Shown piece by piece: positions 2,736 to 39,333 of a DNA stretch of 41,286 bases. A program made the translations under genes and the position numbers. Below the pieces are notes generated by a model. That model was not told where the DNA came from and did no database searches. It worked only from the letters and a program-made list of their open reading frames with translations. Origin of the DNA: a virus (lineage: Duplodnaviria; Heunggongvirae; Uroviricota; Caudoviricetes); the IMG/VR virus record IMGVR_UViG_2565956711_000007; one strand, 5' to 3'. Positions within the stretch are counted from its first letter, which is position 1; each line of letters begins with the position of its first letter.

Positions 2736-2892
2736 GGTGTTCTTTCAGTTCTTCAATTCGAATATTGGTTACGTCTGCATGTGCTATCTGCGCCCATATC
2801 ATCCAGTGGTCATAGCAGTCGTTGAAGTCCTCTGCTTCGATAACCCTGTTGAATGGTTCTCCATTCCATTCACCTGTGACTCGGAAGTGCAT
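2725..2892 (-). CDS. Small hypothetical protein (55 aa) upstream of xis
   Basis: Manual translation MHFRVTGEWNGEPFNRVIEAEDFNDCYDHWMIWAQIAHADVTNIRIEELKEHQTA; GGAG 8 nt upstream of ATG; stop lies inside terminator loop. Confidence 0.4.
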   Translation of the reverse strand: MHFRVTGEWNGEPFNRVIEAEDFNDCYDHWMIWAQIAHADVTNIRIEELKEHQTA

Positions 2893-3050
2893 TTATCATC
2901 TCCATAAAGCAAAACTCGCCGTAGCGAGTTCAGATAAAAGAAATCCCCGCGAGTGCGAGGATTGTTATTGTCTTTTCTTCGTGCATTTGTCGCACTTTCG
3001 GCACCATCCAGATAGGCACATCCGTCCGCAATTAACACATATAGGCCACA

Positions 3051-3329
3051 TCATTTTTCCTCTTTTGGTTTATGAATCTGAATGGTCATGCCGCTTTGAG
3101 TGGTGACTACAATGACAGAACCAGGCTGAAGACTGTTAAGATTGAATGCTTCGTAAAACGAATCCAAGGCCAGCGTTTTTTTATTCTTTCGGTTCCACCA
3201 ACGCCATCCCTTGCTACAGGCTACACTGACAATCCACTGCCCACTCCTGTAAGCCATATAAAACCAGATGAGCAAAACCTGAAGGAATGCTATCCAGTCA
3301 ATAATCGTATATTTCGCGAAGGAGTCCAT
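3051..3329 (-). CDS. Hypothetical membrane protein (N-terminal TM helix, beta-rich C-terminus)
   Basis: ATG at 3329 with AGGAGG 7 nt upstream; hydrophobic segment YTIIDWIAFLQVLLIWFYMAY; start overlaps upstream stop (TGATG). Confidence 0.5.
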   Translation of the reverse strand: MDSFAKYTIIDWIAFLQVLLIWFYMAYRSGQWIVSVACSKGWRWWNRKNKKTLALDSFYEAFNLNSLQPGSVIVVTTQSGMTIQIHKPKEEK

Positions 3330-4564
3330 CACTTCACCTCCTGCTGCGGTGCTGCTGGCATTTCACGCCAGTGCGTAACTGAGTGCGGATCCGGATATTC
3401 GGTGCCATCATCCCAGCGATTGCCATTCCACATTGCAGACCACATCTCACCGTCTTCATACATGACCATTACCGGAATTAACTTATCCGGCATTCGCTCA
3501 CTACAGCTTATCCAAGCATCCGGAGTTACCGGAGAATTGCCACCCTGAACAGTAGGCATATCCGGACCTTTGCGAATCGCCCTGGCAAGATCGATTGGGT
3601 CGTCGTACAACCAGTCACCTGTTTGCGGATGATTGGCTTCTGCCAATTGTGCAGCCCACTCCAGGCCGTCTTTGTGTCCTTGCAGATAGTCCAGCGGCAA
3701 CTCATCACGATTACTTACGGGTTCGATTTGTTCGGAATTACCGGACAACTGCATGGTACCTTCATTGGTGAGGGTACCATCTGCACCCTGAAGCATGGCG
3801 GCGCGGCAGGCATACTCAACGCCCTTAACTGCATCTGCGCAGTAGTTATAGCGATTGCATTCCACTAATTTCCGTTTGAGTTTTTCAATTGCCTGCGCGA
3901 CATCAGCCTGTATTACAGGAACTGGCGGAACGGCTGTTTGCTCTCGAACGTCATTAGTCGCTATCGGTTCTGCTGCCAACTGACTGGCATATTTGTTAAT
4001 GGTAACGATAAGCTCTTGCTCAGCCTCATCCAGACAATCACCGATACCTCGCCTGTCACCGTCAAAATCATCGAAATCGGCACGAATCTTGGCAACCTTC
4101 AGGATTGCGGACAACACCTCACTAGGAATTACCGGATAGTTGGTTGACGTTTCCGCGATTTCCCGAAAATTATTGGTTGACGAATTCTTGTTTTCCCGAA
4201 AGTTTCCGGACTGAAGCATGGCGGCGCGGCAGGCGTTCCAGCCTCTCACCTCTGCAATAGCGGCAACAGCATCAACCGTGTACATGCTAAGAGGATTAGG
4301 CATTGGTTTTTCTTCCGGTACTACTGGAACGGGGGGAGCGGCGTAGACCTCAATAATTCCATTATCAATAGGCCATTCTCCATCCTTGAGGTAGTCACTT
4401 GTGCCGTCAACTTGCTGTTCTGCAATGTGGAATGCACCTATTGGTTTTGCTTCGAGCGATGCCAGCGCAATCCGTGCCAGTTCCATTTGTTCACCACGGG
4501 TAAGCCCGTTTTCAAGCGGATTTTTAATGAACAATTCAATACGTTCTTTGGTAATAGTGCTCAT
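3329..4564 (-). CDS. Ea22-like accessory protein with internal duplication and DUF551-like C-terminus
   Basis: 411 aa; two copies of ACRAAMLQ motif encoded by a 24-bp perfect direct repeat (3788-3811 and 4211-4234); C-terminal W-rich region resembles phage DUF551. Confidence 0.55.
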   Translation of the reverse strand: MSTITKERIELFIKNPLENGLTRGEQMELARIALASLEAKPIGAFHIAEQQVDGTSDYLKDGEWPIDNGIIEVYAAPPVPVVPEEKPMPNPLSMYTVDAVAAIAEVRGWNACRAAMLQSGNFRENKNSSTNNFREIAETSTNYPVIPSEVLSAILKVAKIRADFDDFDGDRRGIGDCLDEAEQELIVTINKYASQLAAEPIATNDVREQTAVPPVPVIQADVAQAIEKLKRKLVECNRYNYCADAVKGVEYACRAAMLQGADGTLTNEGTMQLSGNSEQIEPVSNRDELPLDYLQGHKDGLEWAAQLAEANHPQTGDWLYDDPIDLARAIRKGPDMPTVQGGNSPVTPDAWISCSERMPDKLIPVMVMYEDGEMWSAMWNGNRWDDGTEYPDPHSVTHWREMPAAPQQEVK

Positions 4565-4567
4565 GGG

Positions 4568-4999
4568 TTAGTCCTCACCTTTCTGTTGCACTACCGGAAC
4601 CGATAAATCGACGCACCAGGAGATAACGCCGAATTGATCATCGTTCTGCGCTTCACCCCAAACGTAATATTTTGATCCTGGCCGACCCATTGCCGGGTCA
4701 AATACTTCTATGCCGCGTTCTGCCGTTAACGACATCAGAATCTGATGCAGGCCGCCTTTGATGTTCAGTGACGGAACGGTCAGGAAGTAAATAAACCCGT
4801 AAAGCAATTCGGCCTTGCGCTGGCTTCCGTAAAAATACGGGATTTTGTAATAATCCAGCGCGTCGTCGAGCCAGTCTGTTTTGTCGTGGAATTTCTGATG
4901 CCAGCGTTCCACTACCTCATCGACAGGTTGACCGGCAACCATTGCAACGCAGGTAGCCATGCAGGTGTTAAATGTTGGCTGCATTTGATGTTGAAGCAT
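4568..4999 (-). CDS. Putative papain-like (C39-type) cysteine peptidase domain protein
   Basis: 143 aa from ATG 4999; N-terminal Q....NTCMATCVAMV resembles the C39 peptidase Gln/Cys active-site motif; family assignment from motif only. Confidence 0.45.
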   Translation of the reverse strand: MLQHQMQPTFNTCMATCVAMVAGQPVDEVVERWHQKFHDKTDWLDDALDYYKIPYFYGSQRKAELLYGFIYFLTVPSLNIKGGLHQILMSLTAERGIEVFDPAMGRPGSKYYVWGEAQNDDQFGVISWCVDLSVPVVQQKGED

Positions 5000-5373
5000 C
5001 ACTCCCCCTTACCGATGCCAGCGGCGCTAAGCTTGGTATTCACATCACCTTCAAAAATAGGCAGTACACCAATTGCAGCGGCCCAGTTTTTAGCTAACTC
5101 AGGGTCAGATGTCTCGTCGGTGTAGTCTGATGCCCGCCACCCAATCAGTCGTTTCTGACCAGGAATGTCAGAGTTTCGCTTCTCCGTTGCTTGCTCTAGA
5201 GCATTAAGAAGTGTACGTATTTCATGCTGCTGAGTAGAGATGCTTGAGTCTTTGGCTTCCAGCTCATCAAGCAGCGCCAGCACATCCCGAGTGGGGACCA
5301 TAAAGTTCGGCATGAAGTTATCTTTTGCCTTTTCTGCTGTTAGGCGCAGCGCCTGTTTGTCGATGTTTCTCAT
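4999..5373 (-). CDS. Hypothetical protein
   Basis: 124 aa; AGGAGG 7 nt upstream of ATG 5373; stop overlaps next start. Confidence 0.5.
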   Translation of the reverse strand: MRNIDKQALRLTAEKAKDNFMPNFMVPTRDVLALLDELEAKDSSISTQQHEIRTLLNALEQATEKRNSDIPGQKRLIGWRASDYTDETSDPELAKNWAAAIGVLPIFEGDVNTKLSAAGIGKGE

Positions 5374-6107
5374 TGGGCGGCCTCCTGGCGGTCTATGCGT
5401 TCAATTTCAGCCAGAATAAGTGCGCCAGCTTTCACCAGGTCACGGCGTGGATTTGTCGGCTTCCACCATTCTGGTGTCCACGGCCAGCCAAATGGAATGC
5501 GGTTAAATGGATGGATGGCATTCAGTACGTAGCATGAGGATGCCCACAGTAACTGCGATTTGCTGTACTGGTCATCATGCTCAGGCGTCCATCCCTCAAC
5601 TGATTGATGGCGTTGACGCTCTGCAATTACTGACTGAACGGCATTGGATAGCGATTTCACACCCTGCGCACGCACTTCAGCCAGGAAAGCATCGGTGGCT
5701 GGGGTTTCTGGAATGGCGTCTGGAATAACCTCTGAGTAGACGCGTTCCATTGCCGACTCCCATCCGTAGTAACAAGCCGAATAGCCGTCGCGCTGGTAGC
5801 CGTGGTCTTCAACTCCACATCCCATGCCCTGGTCATGGTATTCAGGCTGATTGTCGGGATTAATGCAGTATTCAATGACCGACTTCATCCCCGCATTCTC
5901 CGCTGCCAGCGCAGTGCACTTGGCCTCAAGGTTATCAATCGTGATTCCAGCAGAACGACACTCCCGCAACGCCGTTTCCAGTTTTGATTCAAGTTCACCG
6001 AACTTACGGACAAGGTATTCAGCGTTTGTTTCGTTAACCTTTAAATCTCGTGGGATGCATTTACCTTTCAGAAAACCATCCATCTCAATTAGTGACATTT
6101 GTTTCAT
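5370..6107 (-). CDS. Hypothetical protein
   Basis: 245 aa ORF in the operon, ATGA-type overlap with upstream gene. Confidence 0.5.
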
Positions 6108-18314: not shown

Positions 18315-18499
18315 ACGCCACAATTCAAACGATACCAGAGCTTCTTATCCAGACACGAGGCAATCAGACCGAAGTGGCGAGGATGCTTTCCTGCGCAAGA
18401 GGAACAGTGCTCAAGTACAACCGAGACAGCAAAGGCGAGCGTCACGTAATAGTTAACAGCGTCCTGATGGTCAAACAGGGCAAGAGGGGAAGACGATGA
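18311..18499 (+). CDS. ninH: NinH-like protein
   Basis: 62 aa; GNQTEVARMLSCARGTVLKY resembles recalled lambda NinH. Confidence 0.7.
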   Translation: MNATIQTIPELLIQTRGNQTEVARMLSCARGTVLKYNRDSKGERHVIVNSVLMVKQGKRGRR

Positions 18500-19119
18500 G
18501 ACTCGAAAGCGTAGCTAAATTTCATTCGCCAAAAAGCCCGATGATGAGCGACTCACCACGGGCCACGGCTTCTGACTCTCTTTCCGGTACTGATGTGATG
18601 GCTGCTATGGGGATGGCGCAATCACAAGCCGGATTCGGAATGGCTGCATTCTGCGGTAAGCATGAACTCAGCCAGAACGACAAACAAAAGGCTATCAACT
18701 ATCTGATGCAATATGCACACAAGGTATCGGGGAAATACCGTGGTGTGGCAAAGCTCGAAGGAAATACTAAGGCAAAGGTACTGCAAGTGCTCGCAACATT
18801 CGCTTATGCGGATTATTGCCGTAGTGCCGCGACGCCGGGTGCAAGATGCAGAGATTGCCACGGTACAGGTCGTGCGGTTGATATAGCAAAAACAGAGCAG
18901 TGGGGGAGAGTTGTTGAGAAAGAGTGCGGAAGATGCAAAGGAGTCGGCTATTCAAGAATGCCAGCAAGCGCTGCATATCGCGCTGTAACGATGCTAATCC
19001 CAAACCTTACTCAACCCACCTGGTCACGCACTGTTAAGCCGCTGTATGACGCTCTGGTGGTGCAATGCCACAAGGAAGAGTCAATCGCAGACAACATTTT
19101 GAATGCGGTCACACGTTAG
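18496..19119 (+). CDS. Q: Late antiterminator Q (lambda type)
   Basis: 207 aa; essentially the lambda Q sequence as recalled (MRLESVAKFHSPKSPMMSDSPRATASDS...). Confidence 0.95.
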   Translation: MRLESVAKFHSPKSPMMSDSPRATASDSLSGTDVMAAMGMAQSQAGFGMAAFCGKHELSQNDKQKAINYLMQYAHKVSGKYRGVAKLEGNTKAKVLQVLATFAYADYCRSAATPGARCRDCHGTGRAVDIAKTEQWGRVVEKECGRCKGVGYSRMPASAAYRAVTMLIPNLTQPTWSRTVKPLYDALVVQCHKEESIADNILNAVTR

Positions 19120-27329: not shown

Positions 27330-28241
27330 ATGGACCAAACCACCGACATTCAGGCTTCTGAAGAATTAACCCTGCCCGGCAATCATGCAGCGGCATCTGC
27401 TGATGGCTTAGTTGTCGATAATGCCAACGACAACGCAGGTCAGGAAGAAGGCTTCGAGATTGTCCTGAAAGACGATGAGAAACCAAAACAAGACCCGGCA
27501 ACTAATGCTGAATTTGCCCGTCGCCGCATCGAACGCAAACGCCAGCGTGAGCTTGAGCAGCAGATGGAAGCGGTTAAGCGTGGAGAGTTGCCGGAGCACC
27601 TGCGGGTGAACCCTGAGTTACCAAAACAACCAGACCCTAACGATTATCTTTCCGAAGATGCACTGGCTAAGTTCGACTATGACCAGAGCCGCGCACTGGC
27701 TGCCTTCCAGCAGGCAAACAGTGAATGGCAGATCAAGGCTATGGACGCACGAAGCCAGGCTGTCGCCGAGCAGGGTCGCAAAACTCAGGAGTTCACCCAG
27801 CAATCAGCGCAATACGTCGAGGCAGCCCGTAAGCACTACGACGCAGCGGAAAAGCTCAATATCCCTGACTATCAGGAGAAAGAGGACGTATTCATGCAAC
27901 TGGTGCCGCCAGCAGTCGGTGCCGACATCATGCGCCTCTTCCCGGAGAAATCCGCCGCTCTCATGTATCACCTTGGTGCTAATCCTGAGAAAACACGCCA
28001 GTTGATGGCGATGGACGGGCAATCCGCGCTGATTGAACTCACTCGACTGTCAGAACGTTTAACTCTCAAGCCTCGAGCCAAGCCTGTTTCAGAAGCCCCG
28101 TTACCTGATGAACCCATTCAGGGACACGCTGTTGCTGCAAATATCTCTGCGATTGAAAAGCAGATGGAAGCGGCAGCAAACAAAGGGGATGTAGAGACGT
28201 ACCGCAAGCTCAAGGCGCAACTGAATAAAGGAATTCGATAA
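27330..28241 (+). CDS. Scaffolding protein (P22 gp8-like)
   Basis: 303 aa; close to recalled P22 gp8. Confidence 0.92.
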
Positions 28242-29536
28242 TGGCATTAAATGAAGGTCAACTGGTCACGTATGCTCTGGATGAAATCATCGAAACCGTC
28301 CAGAACCTGACGCCAATGGCGTCAAAAGTGACAAAATACACCCCTCCGGCAGAATCCATGCAGCGTTCAAGCAACACCGTGTGGATGCCTGTTGAGCAGG
28401 AAGCGCCAACCCAGACTGGCTGGGATTTAACTGGCAACGCAACCGGGATTCTGGAACTCTCCGTGAAATGCAACATGGGCGATCCGGATAACGATTTCTT
28501 CGAGCTTCGTGCAGATGACCTGCGTGATGAGCGTTCTTACCGTCGCCGCATCCAGGCATCCGCCAAAAAACTGGCGAATAACATTGAGTCAGCGATTGCC
28601 AAACAGGCAACTGAAATGGGCTCGCTTGTTGTTCACGATACCCGCGCAATTGGTCCATCTACTGGCCTGTCTGGCTGGGATTTTGTGTCTGATGCAGAGC
28701 GCCTGATGTTCTCCCGTGAGCTAAACCGCGATATGGGCATCAGTTACTTCCTGAACCCTGACGATTACCGCAAAGCAGGCCGCAACCTGGTAGATGGTGA
28801 CATCTTCGGGCGCGTTCCTGAAGAAGCGTATCGCAACGGTACTATTCAGCGTCAGATTGCTGGCTTTGATGAAATTCTTCGCTCACCGAAACTTCCGGCA
28901 GTTACCAAGTCAACCGCTACTGGTGTAACTGTGTCTGGTGCGCAGAAGTTTAAGCCGCAGGCATACACCCTTGATACCGATGGTAACAAAGAGAACGTCG
29001 ACAACCGTGTTGCAACGGTGACCGTATCCTCCACCACCGGATTTAAGCGCGGCGACAAAATCAGCTTCACTGGTGTGAAATTCCTGTCTCAGATGGCGAA
29101 GAACGTGCTGACTGATGATGCGACTTTCTCAATCACCCGTGTGATCGATGGTACTCACATCGAAATCACGCCGAAACCGATTGCACTGGATGACGCGTCA
29201 CTGACAAAAGAAGAGAAGGCTTACGCTAACGTAAACACCTCTCTTGCTGATACCACTCCGGTAAACGTTCTGAACGTGGCAACAACCACCGCTAACGTGT
29301 TCTGGGCTGATGACTCAATCCGACTGCTGTCTCAGCCTATCCCGGTAACCCATGAGCTGTTTGCTGGCATGAAAACGTCTTCCTTCAGCATTCCTGGTAT
29401 TGGTGTTAACGGCATCTTCGCAACGCAGGGTGATATCAACACTCTGTCTGGTAAGTGCCGTATTGCTGTGTGGTATTCAGCATGTGCTGTACGACCAGAG
29501 GCAATTGGTGTTGGTCTGCCTAACCAGACCGCGTGA
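28241..29536 (+). CDS. Major coat protein (P22 gp5-like)
   Basis: 431 aa; MALNEGQ.VT...DEIIET... as in P22 coat. Confidence 0.95.
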
Positions 29537-29544
29537 TAACCAGA

Positions 29545-29566
29545 GGGAGCTTCGGCTCCCTTTTCT
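29545..29566 (+). terminator. Rho-independent terminator right after coat gene
   Basis: GGGAGC TTCG GCTCCC then TTTTCT. Confidence 0.65.
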
Positions 29567-29579
29567 ATTGGAGATACCA

Positions 29580-30173
29580 ATGAGCGTAATGATTTTTCAG
29601 GCTGGCGGAGATACCAAAATCTGGGGGCGCAAGCTGAAAACGAAAACCGTTGATCCTGATGATGTAGCTGTGCACTTAGCAAATGGCTGGTATAAGCACC
29701 CTGACGATGTTCCTGATGATCCTCTTGTTGGTGATCAAATTGGGAGTGTTGGCGGAGGTGAAACTTCCCCAGTTGATATGGGCGAAGTGTCCGACGGTTA
29801 TCACACTTTTAACGAGCTTTACGCTCACCGAGTGCGCCTCTTCTCATCGCTGATGCATGCTTACGCTGAGCTTTCGTGGTGGTCTCGCAAACACAGTGAC
29901 GGTGAAGAGTGGGATGGCTGGATCATTGCTGGTATCACCACTCCAGAAGGCGAAATCACTTATCACCTACCTGTTGAAGAAATCGAGTTCCTTCCTGAAG
30001 GTACTGAGCTTGAGTTCGGGAAAGAGTGGGATGGTCATGAAGCAAATGATGTTCTTGGACGACTCCTGAGTTTGCGTCCGGCTATTGCAGAGCCAGAGCC
30101 AGAAGAAAAACAGCGTAAAAAGCCTGGTCGAAAACCTAAGGCGGCAGCAGATGAACCTGACAACGAAGGGTGA
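29580..30173 (+). CDS. Hypothetical acidic protein between coat and gp4
   Basis: 197 aa from ATG 29580 (GGAG 6 nt upstream); longer tool ORF from 29400 runs through the terminator. Confidence 0.55.
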
Positions 30174-30651
30174 TTTAGTCCTTGCAGCATTACGTAAGCT
30201 CGGTGTTGCATCAAATGCCACGTTAACCGATGTCGAACCGCAGTCTATGGAAGACGGCGTCAACGACCTTGAAATGATGATGGCTGAATGGCTTGGCGGT
30301 GATGTGTCACCTGGTATCAACGTTGGCTACATTTTTGCTGATGCAGATGTCGCTCCGGATCCGGGCGATGAGCACGGTTTATCAAATAACGCTATCAATG
30401 CCGTCATTTTCAACCTTGCCTGCCGCATTGCTCCGGATTATGCGCTGGAATCGTCAGCAAAACTTATAACCACTGCCAGATACGGGAAAGAGCGACTCGT
30501 CAAACTGTCTGCAATGGACAGAGCAAAAGCCGCTAAATGTAAGTCCGGTTATCCAAACCGTATGCCTGTTGGTAGCGGTAACCAGTTGGCGAAGTGGAAC
30601 GGTTGGAATTACTTCCACCGGAAGGAACCTTGCGATAACGGGAGCGAATAA
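30148..30651 (+). CDS. Head-to-tail adaptor / tail accessory factor (P22 gp4-like)
   Basis: 167 aa from ATG 30148; [26 protein letters not shown] as in P22 gp4. Confidence 0.85.
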
Positions 30652-32779: not shown

Positions 32780-33148
32780 ATGTTAACAAAAATCGATGCT
32801 CTCACCGGGCAGGGGTTGATGCGCCTGTGGGGCGTCCCTTCATGGCCTGATTTCGATGCCAGTTACTGGCTTTGGGAGGTTTGCGGAGTGTTCGTGACGA
32901 TTGACCATGGCGACCACGTCGACCTACACATGGCGATGAAGCCTGGCGAGCGCCACCGATGCCGGGATGCCGTGGCGGATGTATTGGGGATGATTGGCGA
33001 CCGGGAAGTGCATGCACTGATTGAGGATCAGTACAAGAAGGTCACTAACCTGGCAAAAAAAATGGGATTCCGTCACGAAGGGATGTTCACAGGTGAACGC
33101 CTCGACGGTTCCGTGACAAAAGTAATCAAAATGGTGAGGTTTGTATGA
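32780..33148 (+). CDS. Virion protein in P22 gp14 position
   Basis: 122 aa; AAGGA SD; assignment by position only. Confidence 0.5.
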   Translation: MLTKIDALTGQGLMRLWGVPSWPDFDASYWLWEVCGVFVTIDHGDHVDLHMAMKPGERHRCRDAVADVLGMIGDREVHALIEDQYKKVTNLAKKMGFRHEGMFTGERLDGSVTKVIKMVRFV

Positions 33149-33741
33149 GCTTTGTAGGCAAGGCGCTAAATAGCGTTGTGGGTGGCATCACTGGCGCTAA
33201 TAAGGCCGCCGATGCTCAGATAGGCGCGGCGAAAGACTCTAACCAGATGGCCTGGAATATCTACCAGGACCAGAAGAAAACCAACCAGCCATTCCTGAAT
33301 GCAGGATTGACCGGTTTAACAGGGTTGCAGGGTATTGCAGGTAAGCCAATCGACCGTAACGCCTCGCTCGCTGAGTATTACGCGTCTCCGGAATACCAAA
33401 TGCTTAGCGACCAGGCTCGCTATCAAAGCCTTAATGCTGCGGAGGCAACCGGCGGCCTGGGGTCAACCGCTACCGGGAATATGCTCGCTTCTATTGCACC
33501 ACAGCTCGGGCAAAACTACCTGTCAATGCTGACCGATCAGCAGAACAACATGTACGGCCAGTTGCTCGGCCTCACTAACGTAGGGCTTTCTGCGGCAGGA
33601 GCTAACAACGCGGCGGCTGGCGATTACTCAAACGCTTATGGCAATAACATGCAGCAGATCGGGGCTTCCAAAGCAGGCAAGGCGCAATCCGGCTTCAATT
33701 CGCTTATGCAGATTGGTGGCGTGGCTTCTGGCTTCTACTAA
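33145..33741 (+). CDS. Ejection (internal) protein, gp7 position
   Basis: 198 aa; Gly/Ala/Asn-rich; by position. Confidence 0.6.
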   Translation: MSFVGKALNSVVGGITGANKAADAQIGAAKDSNQMAWNIYQDQKKTNQPFLNAGLTGLTGLQGIAGKPIDRNASLAEYYASPEYQMLSDQARYQSLNAAEATGGLGSTATGNMLASIAPQLGQNYLSMLTDQQNNMYGQLLGLTNVGLSAAGANNAAAGDYSNAYGNNMQQIGASKAGKAQSGFNSLMQIGGVASGFY

Positions 33742-38191: not shown

Positions 38192-38292
38192 CAAAACAGT
38201 GAAGCCCCAACTGCTGGAACAGTCAGGGCTTCGGTATCAACAAAACTTACGAGGTATTATTGATATGTCAAGCTTAGCAAAGTCAACTGTAA
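38192..38292 (-). ncRNA. Predicted sar-like antisense RNA covering the ant ribosome-binding site
   Basis: Minus-strand -35 TTGACG (38321-38326), 16-nt spacer, extended -10 TGcTATTAG (38299-38307); hairpin 38201-38232 then U-rich tract. Confidence 0.35.
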
Positions 38293-39155
38293 ATTGCACT
38301 AATAGCATCATCATTTCTGACGTCAAGATTCATATGGATTCAGAGGGTCGTTACTCGCTTAATGACCTTCATGTAGCATCTGGAAAGGAGGAAAAACATC
38401 AGCCAGCTTTCTTCATGCGTAGAAATGAAACTATTGAATTGATTAATGAAATTTTTAATTCTGCGGATATGCAGAATAAGAATCCCGTCCTTTCTAAGAA
38501 AGGTAGATATGGTGGAACCTACGTTTGCAAGGAGCTTGTTTACTCCTACGCCATGTGGATTAGCGCAGCCTTTGCGCTGAAGGTTATCCGTGCATATGAC
38601 GCAATGGTTACTACCACACAAGAGAGGAAGGCTATTGGCGGTAAAACTTCAGTAGCTGAACGCACACCGCTACGCGATGCAGTAAACATGCTGGTAGGAA
38701 AGAAAGGACTTCGCTATGACGATGCATACAATATGGTTCATCAGCGTTTTGGTATTGACAGCATTGATGAACTTTCAATTGAACAAATCCCGCTGGCCGT
38801 AGAGTACATCCACAGGGTAGTGCTTGAAGGCGAGTTTATCGGCAAACAAGAGAAGAAAGCAAACGAGCTTTCTGCAAAAGAAGCAAACAGCCTTGTATGG
38901 CTATGGGATTATGCTAACCGTTCACAGGCATTATTCCGCGAACTGTATCCGGCATTAAAACAAATTCAATCGAACTATTCCGGCAGATGCTACGACTACG
39001 GTCATGAATTCTCGTATGTTATCGGAATGGCGAGAGACGTTTTAATAAACCACACACGAGATGTTGATATTAATGAACCAGACGGACCAACGAATCTTTC
39101 CGCATGGATGAGACTTAAGAATAAAGAATTACCTCCTTCAGTACATAACTACTGA
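38265..39155 (+). CDS. ant: Antirepressor Ant-like protein with KilA-N-type N-terminal domain
   Basis: 296 aa from ATG 38265; follows arc as in P22 immI; N-terminal [10 protein letters not shown] motif. Confidence 0.7.
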
Positions 39156-39173
39156 CAGATAACCAACGCAACG

Positions 39174-39197
39174 ACCCAGCTTCGGCTGGGTTTTTTT
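39174..39197 (+). terminator. Rho-independent terminator after ant
   Basis: ACCCAGC TTCG GCTGGGT then TTTTTTT. Confidence 0.85.
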
Positions 39198-39333
39198 ATG
39201 CCCAAAATTCACCGTAGCTACTCAGCGGCTATGGCCTTGAGAGATAGCACTACACAAAAAGTGTAGTGCAAAAAGCAAACAAATACTCACCGTAGCCACG
39301 CTGCGGCGATTACTTGTATCTGGAGCAAATTAA

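Follow-up and report, generated by a model that had tools for sequence, protein, structure and literature searches.

In P22-like phages, the interval between the coat gene and gene 4 is a conserved slot made up of the 't-coat terminator' and a small open reading frame (ORF) of the gene 6/orf186/orf69 kind, which is already annotated in P22, L, Sf6, and epsilon34 and whose function is uncharacterized. The DNA analyzed here, IMG/VR virus record IMGVR_UViG_2565956711_000007 (41,286 nucleotides [nt], hereafter the window), is a P22-like prophage of E. coli, and its slot holds a terminator hairpin followed by a 197-codon frame, ORF197. The ORF197 segment is mosaic, exchangeable cargo in a fixed frame. 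Its product would be a cytoplasmic, non-virion accessory protein in which a WDGH domain (Pfam PF25311) is inserted between an N-terminal module (N-module) of the orf69 type and a Pro/Glu/Lys tail, and we are highly confident of the identity and the non-structural nature of this protein. The WDGH domain would in turn be a counter-defence module that binds or, more likely, cleaves a small molecule derived from nucleotides, for example an immune signal of the Thoeris, CBASS, or Pycsar type. The explanation as a whole, joining the slot, the accessory protein, and a counter-defence WDGH, is the best that we can offer, and we place it just short of an even call. The features of the slot, by position in the window, are as follows.

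28241..29536, + strand: coat protein gene (P22 gp5 homolog, 431 amino acids [aa]), from the ORF list; upstream neighbor of ORF197
29542..29569, + strand: intrinsic-terminator-like hairpin ('t coat'), from folding, a strict scan, and conservation
29570..29573, + strand: Shine-Dalgarno (SD) sequence GGAG, 6 nt 5′ of the ORF197 ATG, read from the sequence
29575..30084, + strand: mosaic cassette (N-module, linker, and WDGH), from blastn junctions with Bas106 and IME10
29580..30173, + strand: ORF197, gene 6/orf186-family protein of 197 aa, with ATG at 29580 and TGA at 30171-30173
30151..30651, + strand: gp4 homolog (head-tail adaptor, 166 aa, also 166 aa in P22), with ATG at 30151 and the same start in RefSeq

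ORF197 lies between the coat gene and the gp4 gene on the strand of the late operon, and the same gene order is found in L, g341c, P22, Sf6, and Bas106. The protein matches PHROG 3769 over its full length (E 4e-101), and over aa 1-167 it is 59-63% identical to L Orf186, ST104 ORF54, g341c gene 6, and BTP1 (tblastn). In the P22 record an annotated stem-loop is followed by the 69-aa orf69 and then gene 4, and in Sf6 't coat' is followed by the 61-aa gene 6 and then gene 7; Sf6 gene 6 aligns poorly to P22 orf69 and Bas106_0006 despite occupying the same slot. The epsilon34 paper interprets the P22 form of the slot as an internal deletion, and the phage L genome paper gives orf186 as 'detailed function unknown' (PMC8022706). 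A first-pass annotation of this DNA, made from the sequence alone, had been unable to place the ORF in the classical P22 head pathway, and it does stand outside that pathway: the P22 counterpart orf69 is a truncated, non-essential version (PMC2629481, citing Eppler 1991). The same annotation had held that a match to a known conserved head-module protein would speak against its view of the ORF. The ORF does match the conserved gene 6/orf186 family of the head cluster, although only in a positional sense. As a sequence feature the slot is ordinary, and the allele is common in E. coli prophages. A protein 98% identical to ORF197 (P0001) heads a cluster of 1,929 database sequences; the full ORF197 is present in 42 of 5,426 complete E. 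coli genomes, with at least 98.7% identity among the matches listed, and 217 E. coli genomes match some part of the query. Across 80 related IMG/VR loci (L018-L097), protein length ranges from 186 to 211 aa.

The terminator begins 9 nt 3′ of the coat stop codon, which ends at 29536. Its stem GGGAGC/GCTCCC (29545-29550/29555-29560) encloses a TTCG loop (29551-29554), can be extended to 9 pairs (29542-29563), and is followed by the T-run TTTTCTATT at 29561-29569. The hairpin has a predicted energy of -14.4 kcal/mol, and the 56-nt region folds at -19.2 kcal/mol (z = -2.5). With a G+C-rich stem of 6-9 bp, a UUCG loop, and then the U-run UUUUCUAUU, it has the makeup of an intrinsic terminator, and the earlier proposal of a terminator directly after the coat gene (hairpin 29545-29560, T-run to 29569) is borne out. 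A strict scan of both strands over 41 kb, requiring a perfect 6-bp stem with at least 5 G/C and TTTT immediately 3′, returned four sites including the coat terminator, compared with a mean of 0.01 in 200 mononucleotide shuffles. The built-in terminator scan did not list the coat hairpin, apparently because greedy G-U/A-U stem extension consumes the T-run. In an alignment, the position of the hairpin is common to the window, P22, L, Sf6, and Bas106, and two pairs are altered on both sides in a compensatory manner. A terminator or stem-loop is annotated at this site in the L, g341c, P22, and Sf6 records ('putative' in P22 and Sf6), and the hairpin was found in 78 of the 80 related loci. The only other strict terminators in the window are at 39175-39199 (+), 12171 (-), and 2733 (-). 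The first of these, CCCAGC-TTCG-GCTGGG followed by TTTTTTTAT, lies directly 3′ of an Ant-like gene (KilA-N and P22_AR_C, 38199-39155) and has the core AGCTTCGGCT in common with the coat terminator.

The hairpin probably acts as an intrinsic terminator or as an RNA-stabilizing stem-loop inside the late operon, read through by RNA polymerase modified by a Q-type antiterminator. From its position and the annotation of relatives, it likely marks the step from procapsid genes, which are expressed at very high levels, to the low-copy genes of head completion. The Q-type antiterminator encoded in the window (18496-19119) should allow expression of ORF197 by read-through of the late transcript. A search of the 1 kb that precedes the ORF197 ATG gave no promoter-like site (the nearest is at 28328-28355), and no terminator was found 3′ of ORF197, which ends inside gene 4. 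Since ORF197 has neither its own promoter nor a downstream terminator and overlaps gene 4, it would be transcribed within the late operon and translated from the late transcript via its own SD.

The gene itself is well defined. It has its own SD (GGAG, 29570-29573) and encodes an acidic protein (isoelectric point [pI] 4.68, 22 kDa) whose final 32 of 197 residues are rich in Pro, Glu, and Lys; the presence of an SD, the acidic character, and the Pro/Glu/Lys-rich tail are as first described. The overlap with the gp4 homolog, by contrast, had been put at 26 nt and is 23 nt (30151-30173), because the gp4 ATG is at 30151, a start with which RefSeq agrees. Among the 80 IMG/VR loci the overlap with gene 4 is 17 nt in 53, 23 nt in 24, 20 nt in one, and 26 nt in one; the remaining locus has no called gene 4 start. 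The overlap suggests translational coupling, and ORF197 probably delivers ribosomes to gene 4, because its end overlaps the gene 4 start. In comparison with phage L orf186, nonsynonymous and synonymous divergence (pN/pS) is 0.165/0.933 in WDGH and 0.31/0.90 in the N-domain, and the linker has the highest pN of the segments (0.42). Because pN is low against saturated synonymous sites (pS ~0.9), the substitution pattern indicates that ORF197 is a real gene whose protein is under purifying selection, strongest in WDGH.

Other starts and frames were considered and set aside. A TTG at 29400, upstream and in frame, falls within the coat gene; a start at Met67, which would give the 133-aa RefSeq product, has no SD and would omit the conserved N-module; and reverse-strand ORFs at 29332-29682 and 29967-30320 have no support. 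A small hairpin covering the SD (29567-29581, +; AUUGG-AGAUA-CCAAU), in which part of the SD could be base-paired with the first nucleotide of the start codon, was rejected as a regulator. Neither phage L nor P22 conserves it, and it is probably fortuitous. RefSeq (PGAP, its annotation pipeline) treats the intact gene inconsistently, as two 'partial in the middle of a contig' pseudogene fragments, as one tail fragment, or as a 133-aa 'WDGH domain-containing protein' from Met67. Such mis-annotations occur in three loci (L015 20548-20637, L016 542-937, and L017 542-943), and the 197/199-codon frame proved open in each of the three genomes checked; RefSeq often records this intact gene as fragments.

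The ORF197 protein comprises four segments, given here with their scores in the predicted local distance difference test (pLDDT) of an AlphaFold2 model.

29580..29714, + strand: N-terminal module (aa 1-45), beta-hairpin plus helix with a GW..HP motif, pLDDT 79-89
29715..29780, + strand: acidic disordered linker (aa 46-67), pLDDT below 50 for aa 48-63, the most variable segment
29781..30074, + strand: WDGH domain (aa 68-165) with motifs SDGYHTF, HR, H.DG, YHLP, and WDGH, pLDDT 88-98
30075..30170, + strand: Pro/Glu/Lys tail (aa 166-197), consisting of (Pro-Glu)n, the basic patch KKPGRKPK, and an acidic end, disordered in the AlphaFold2 model

The N-module matches phrog_1175 at aa 1-44 (E 2e-14). 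A profile search with it recovered 328 proteins; the best 120 are all of 45-84 aa, being short forms or fragments, and those among them with a named source are from enterobacteria. WDGH is modelled as a compact alpha/beta domain and matches PF25311 at E 1.3e-39 (134.8 bits compared with a cut-off of 27) over profile positions 1-97 of 97, with all the signature motifs of the family (SDGYHTF..LY.HR, H.DG, YHLP, and WDGH) present. In the family alignment (A1), S71, D72, G73, H75, T76, F77, L80, Y81, H83, R84, Y128, L130, W150, D151, G152, and H153 are invariant, and Y74, H105, D107, G108, H129, and P131 are conserved in at least 90% of sequences. The same signature residues are at least 90% conserved in 150 family representatives, with the exception of L130 and P131, which are absent from that list. 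A second alignment (A2), of ORF197 with L Orf186, P22 orf69, and Bas106_0006, shows that the tail and N-module are common to short and long slot proteins, whereas the linker and WDGH occur in long forms only; its invariant positions are G9, G36, W37, H40, P41, G183, K185, P186, and K187. Tail and linker vary in length by (Pro-Glu)n repeats (window 30075-30120); P0001 is one Pro-Glu unit shorter than the window, and P0004 carries PEPEPEPAPEPEPEPEPE. ORF197 had no Pfam match besides PF25311 at E up to 1, its model had no match to solved structures in a fold search, sequence and profile searches of the PDB gave no match, and neither did PADLOC and NCBIfam.

Comparison with the nearest sequenced phages, Bas106 and IME10, delimits the cassette. 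Their flanks (28241-29574 and 30085/30088-30700) are 97.6-98.2% identical to the window by blastn, and the 510-bp middle has no DNA match in them; it is replaced by 147-186 bp that encode a different N-module only. RefSeq names the coat gene 'P22 phage major capsid protein family protein'; its nt sequence is 97.6% identical to that of the Bas106 head protein gene and 72% identical to that of gene 5 of P22. Phages that match the window at 97.6-98% in their coat and gp4 genes lack the cassette; the same coat and adaptor proteins function whether or not the WDGH part is there. The G+C content (GC) of the cassette equals that of its flanks, and GC at third codon positions (GC3) is 0.41, compared with 0.49-0.53 in the neighboring genes.

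The WDGH family is large and widespread. In a library of 1.84 billion proteins, 3,663 representatives at 50% identity were found (E <=0.001), and in 150 representatives that are pairwise at most 50% identical, 28 of about 98 positions reach 90% conservation or more. These near-invariant positions are mostly polar or aromatic and include four His, three Asp, two Ser, two Arg, and several Trp and Tyr. Copies from E. coli phages are 45-50% identical to those from Listeria, Bacillus, and Streptococcus phages. This similarity between E. coli and Listeria/Bacillus copies favors a universal small-molecule ligand or substrate over a host-specific protein target. Unrelated myo-, sipho-, and jumbo phages carry WDGH genes in the company of early or accessory genes. 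Runs of small accessory genes include them in Listeria pecentumviruses, Bacillus Tsamsa-type phages, and Klebsiella lastaviruses; in a pneumococcal siphovirus the gene lies between portal and minor head genes, and in a Serratia prophage between lysis and terminase genes. A first scan of viral contigs returned P22-like loci only, and a second, with a distant query, returned about 29 other contexts.

In most WDGH proteins the domain is joined, on its N- or C-terminal side, to partners that vary. Those recognizable by Pfam in the 150 best family representatives were Sequestin/crAss001_48 (6), Lar restriction alleviation (3), DUF551 (2), and one each of the Acb2/Tad1 hairpin, Tad2-like, RNase_T, and YodL. 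Sequestin is found both N-terminal and C-terminal to WDGH, and one Serratia protein (P0101) has the order Tad2-like, WDGH, Sequestin. Associations also extend to neighboring genes: in two loci (L012 and L141) the gene immediately upstream of one for WDGH-Sequestin is Tad2-like, and in another (L098) an Acb2/Tad1-hairpin gene lies two genes upstream of the WDGH gene. Pfam searches of the ten longest WDGH proteins and of recurrent partner segments found no extra domains, and an N-module of the 'MRFRKKPVVIEAFQF' kind, suspected of being Acb4-like, had no significant Pfam match. Some family members (P0138, P0152, and P0232) have a tandem duplication of the domain, in which the canonical WDGH is preceded on its N-terminal side by a degenerate WDGH-like copy (LDGYHTYKELDDH...).

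Sequestin was itself discovered, in a 2025 preprint, by a search for Pfam families that occur in fusions with the sponges Tad2 and Acb4, and was shown there to bind 3'cADPR and to block type I Thoeris (bioRxiv 10.1101/2025.07.12.664507). WDGH is a candidate counter-defence module by the same logic, because it is fused or adjacent to sponge domains, an association found in relatives of the WDGH domain and not in ORF197 itself. By this guilt by association, WDGH may be a late-expressed counter-defence module acting on a nucleotide-type signal, a reading that we find credible, if rather less than probable. Cleavage of the signal is favored over its sequestration, because conservation of the domain is enzyme-like. 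Late in infection, when Thoeris-, CBASS-, or Pycsar-type systems are triggered by structural proteins, the protein would be produced abundantly. The broader proposal is that WDGH represents an unrecognized, widespread counter-defence family of phages of Gram-positive and Gram-negative hosts, most likely a small enzyme and otherwise a sponge, which P22-like phages deploy from the late operon; this we put forward more tentatively still.

Several observations weigh against a role in counter-defence. Known anti-defence genes of P22-type phages are early, so placement in the late operon is unusual. Only about 11 of the 150 representatives have a known anti-defence partner, most partners are unknown, and RNase_T, DUF551, and YodL are uninformative. 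The Tad2 adjacency seen in L012 and L141 is probably that of one lineage. In about 11 metagenomic phages, again one lineage (L099, L100, L101, L105, L107, L114, L117, L118, L121, L140, and L145, at about 2800-6000 in each), a stand-alone WDGH gene lies between DnaB or dCMP deaminase genes and those of family-2 glycosyltransferases; DnaB helicase or dCMP deaminase is upstream, the glycosyltransferase is adjacent (mostly upstream), and conserved genes of unidentified family follow downstream. At another locus WDGH stands among DNA methyltransferases. The DnaB/deaminase-glycosyltransferase and methyltransferase contexts fit nucleotide or DNA metabolism equally with immunity. Finally, the literature searched contained no experiment on any WDGH protein and nothing relevant on WDGH, PF25311, or orf69, and WDGH is unmentioned in the Sequestin paper and its supplements (10.1101/2025.07.12.664507).

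In a second explanation, WDGH is a small hydrolase or transferase for nucleotide metabolism or DNA modification of the phage, such as pool trimming or base modification, and does not act on an immune signal. The enzyme-like conservation of His, Asp, Ser, and Arg agrees with such an activity, as do the deaminase and glycosyltransferase neighbors, a thymidylate kinase gene and the DNA methyltransferases found beside WDGH elsewhere, and the one fusion to an RNase_T-type exonuclease. However, the deaminase/glycosyltransferase context is that of a single lineage, and the neighbor counts (glycosyltransferase 11, deaminase 5) are not independent, because about 11 of the roughly 29 contexts belong to it. 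Fusions to Sequestin, Tad2, and Acb2/Tad1 outnumber any metabolic partner, the domain has no likeness to a known nucleotide-metabolism fold, and in P22-like phages the gene is remote from those for replication, and close relatives either lack it or do not need it (PMC2629481). We therefore regard a metabolic enzyme as unlikely, though deserving of serious consideration.

The gene for gpFI of phage lambda lies between the major capsid and head-tail adaptor genes, and gpFI itself, a protein with a flexible linker, is absent from virions and can be dispensed with under some conditions. By analogy, the ORF197 protein could be a non-virion helper of head assembly or DNA packaging, with the N-module and basic tail acting on the procapsid, terminase, or DNA, and WDGH an add-on. 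This would account for the retention, in the slot of every P22-like phage examined, of a small ORF with an N-module and a KPGRKPK-type tail, and the gene 4 overlap, the disordered acidic linker, and the basic AT-hook-like patch are compatible with it. The resemblance to gpFI is confined to gene position and flexible linker, and ORF197 showed no gpFI similarity, its only Pfam match being WDGH, with no match to a solved chain or fold. Conservation of the tail may partly reflect the ribosome-binding region of gene 4, which is in the same DNA; the P22 homolog is non-essential (PMC2629481); and both the conservation of WDGH and its occurrence outside head clusters are left unexplained. A packaging helper is accordingly quite improbable in our judgement. 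The slot might, more simply, be a spacer for translational coupling, in which any ORF reaching from the terminator to the gene 4 start suffices and WDGH is a neutral or selfish passenger. The slot does always hold an ORF that ends 17-26 nt inside gene 4, with a content varying from 61 to 211 aa; however, purifying selection on WDGH (pN 0.165 with synonymous sites saturated) and on the N-module, together with the near-invariant motifs of 3,663 representative clusters, shows that the protein itself is selected, and we consider a mere spacer improbable to a still greater degree.

The first-pass annotation had suggested a decoration or accessory virion protein. In favor of this, the gene is in the head cluster and would be expressed late, and in phage L a liquid chromatography-tandem mass spectrometry study of the virion counted 22 phage proteins (PMC8022706); its text does not give a name to every one of nine of these, and Orf186 might be present at a low level. 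The 13 that the text does name comprise the P22-type set, Dec, scaffold, and small terminase; Orf186 is not among these 13, and Dec is given there as the sole extra virion protein of phage L (PMC8022706). In neither fold nor sequence does ORF197 resemble a known decoration protein such as phage L Dec or lambda gpD. That the protein decorates or belongs to the virion is unlikely, because the cassette is absent from phages with near-identical coats, the P22 homolog is dispensable, and WDGH genes occur in non-structural, accessory regions of unrelated phages of differing morphology; as an explanation of ORF197 we give such a role very little credence. The same annotation's other suggestion, a moron, holds in part: presence or absence among near-identical relatives is just what is found for segment 29575-30084, an exchangeable mosaic piece with sharp junctions. 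The slightly lower GC3 and the terminator directly upstream would also agree with a gene for lysogenic conversion, expressed independently in the prophage. ORF197 is nevertheless not an independently transcribed moron, because the gap of about 10 nt between the T-run and the ATG leaves no space for a promoter, and with no promoter-like site, no downstream terminator, the gene 4 overlap, and GC equal to that of the flanks, activity as a separate prophage gene is highly improbable.

The wider setting is that of a P22-like phage, and the late genes of the window are in P22 order (terminase, portal, scaffold, coat, gp4, gp10, gp26, and ejection proteins). Two further genes of this genome are as follows.

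1419-2489: integrase gene of the window
18496-19119: gene for the Q-type (Q-family) antiterminator of the window

Where P22 has gene 14 (DUF2824, 151 aa in relatives), the window has a 122-aa ORF (32780-33148, +) without a Pfam match, and the next ORF, 33145-33741, is the gp7 homolog. In the early region, a 411-aa protein (3329-4564, -) ends in DUF551, which is a fusion partner of WDGH in other phages.

The interest of the slot rests on WDGH, a large and unusually conserved phage family that has no solved PDB relative and is repeatedly fused to anti-defence sponges proven by experiment. If the association with anti-defence is true, phage L (orf186), P22 (a natural deletion form), and E. coli phages of the Bas106 type make up a ready isogenic test system.

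Among known systems, the closest to ORF197 are the long slot proteins of PHROG 3769, L Orf186, epsilon34/g341c gene 6, and ST104 ORF54, which have the same slot, upstream terminator, gene-4 overlap, and three modules with WDGH. L Orf186, g341c gene 6, and ST104 ORF54 share 62% aa identity with ORF197 over aa 1-167, and the DNA of phage L is colinear throughout with the window at 68%. ORF197 differs from the L, g341c, and ST104 homologs in belonging to an E. coli rather than a Salmonella lineage, in a linker longer by 8 residues, and in a tail with one more Pro-Glu repeat. The short slot proteins, P22 orf69, Sf6 gene 6 (HK620 hkbT), and Bas106_0006 (phrog_1175), have the same slot, terminator, and gene-4 overlap, and all three have the basic tail; P22 orf69 and Bas106_0006 have a homologous N-module, and the tail of Bas106_0006 is identical to that of ORF197. 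Unlike ORF197, the short proteins are of 61-76 aa and have neither linker nor WDGH. Similarly, the post-capsid stem-loops ('t coat') of P22, Sf6, lambda, and HK97 stand at the same site directly 3′ of the major capsid gene, with a GC stem, a tetraloop, and a T-run, whereas the stem in the window and Bas106 has one A-U pair more than that of relatives (GGGAGC vs GGGGC). WDGH resembles the phage sponges and degraders (Tad1, Tad2, Acb2, Acb4, Sequestin, and Lockin; Acb1 and Apyc1) in being small, modular, and widespread in phages of many phyla, and in its fusion or adjacency to Sequestin, Tad2-like, and Acb2/Tad1 domains, much as sponges are joined to one another. It differs from them in having no sequence or fold membership in those families, and its residue conservation is, by our judgement rather than by measurement, far above what a sponge would show. 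Elsewhere, PF25311 proteins consist of WDGH alone or of WDGH after other N-terminal modules, encoded in early or accessory regions or beside replication genes, whereas an orf69-type head-cluster protein with an embedded WDGH domain is found in P22-like phages only.

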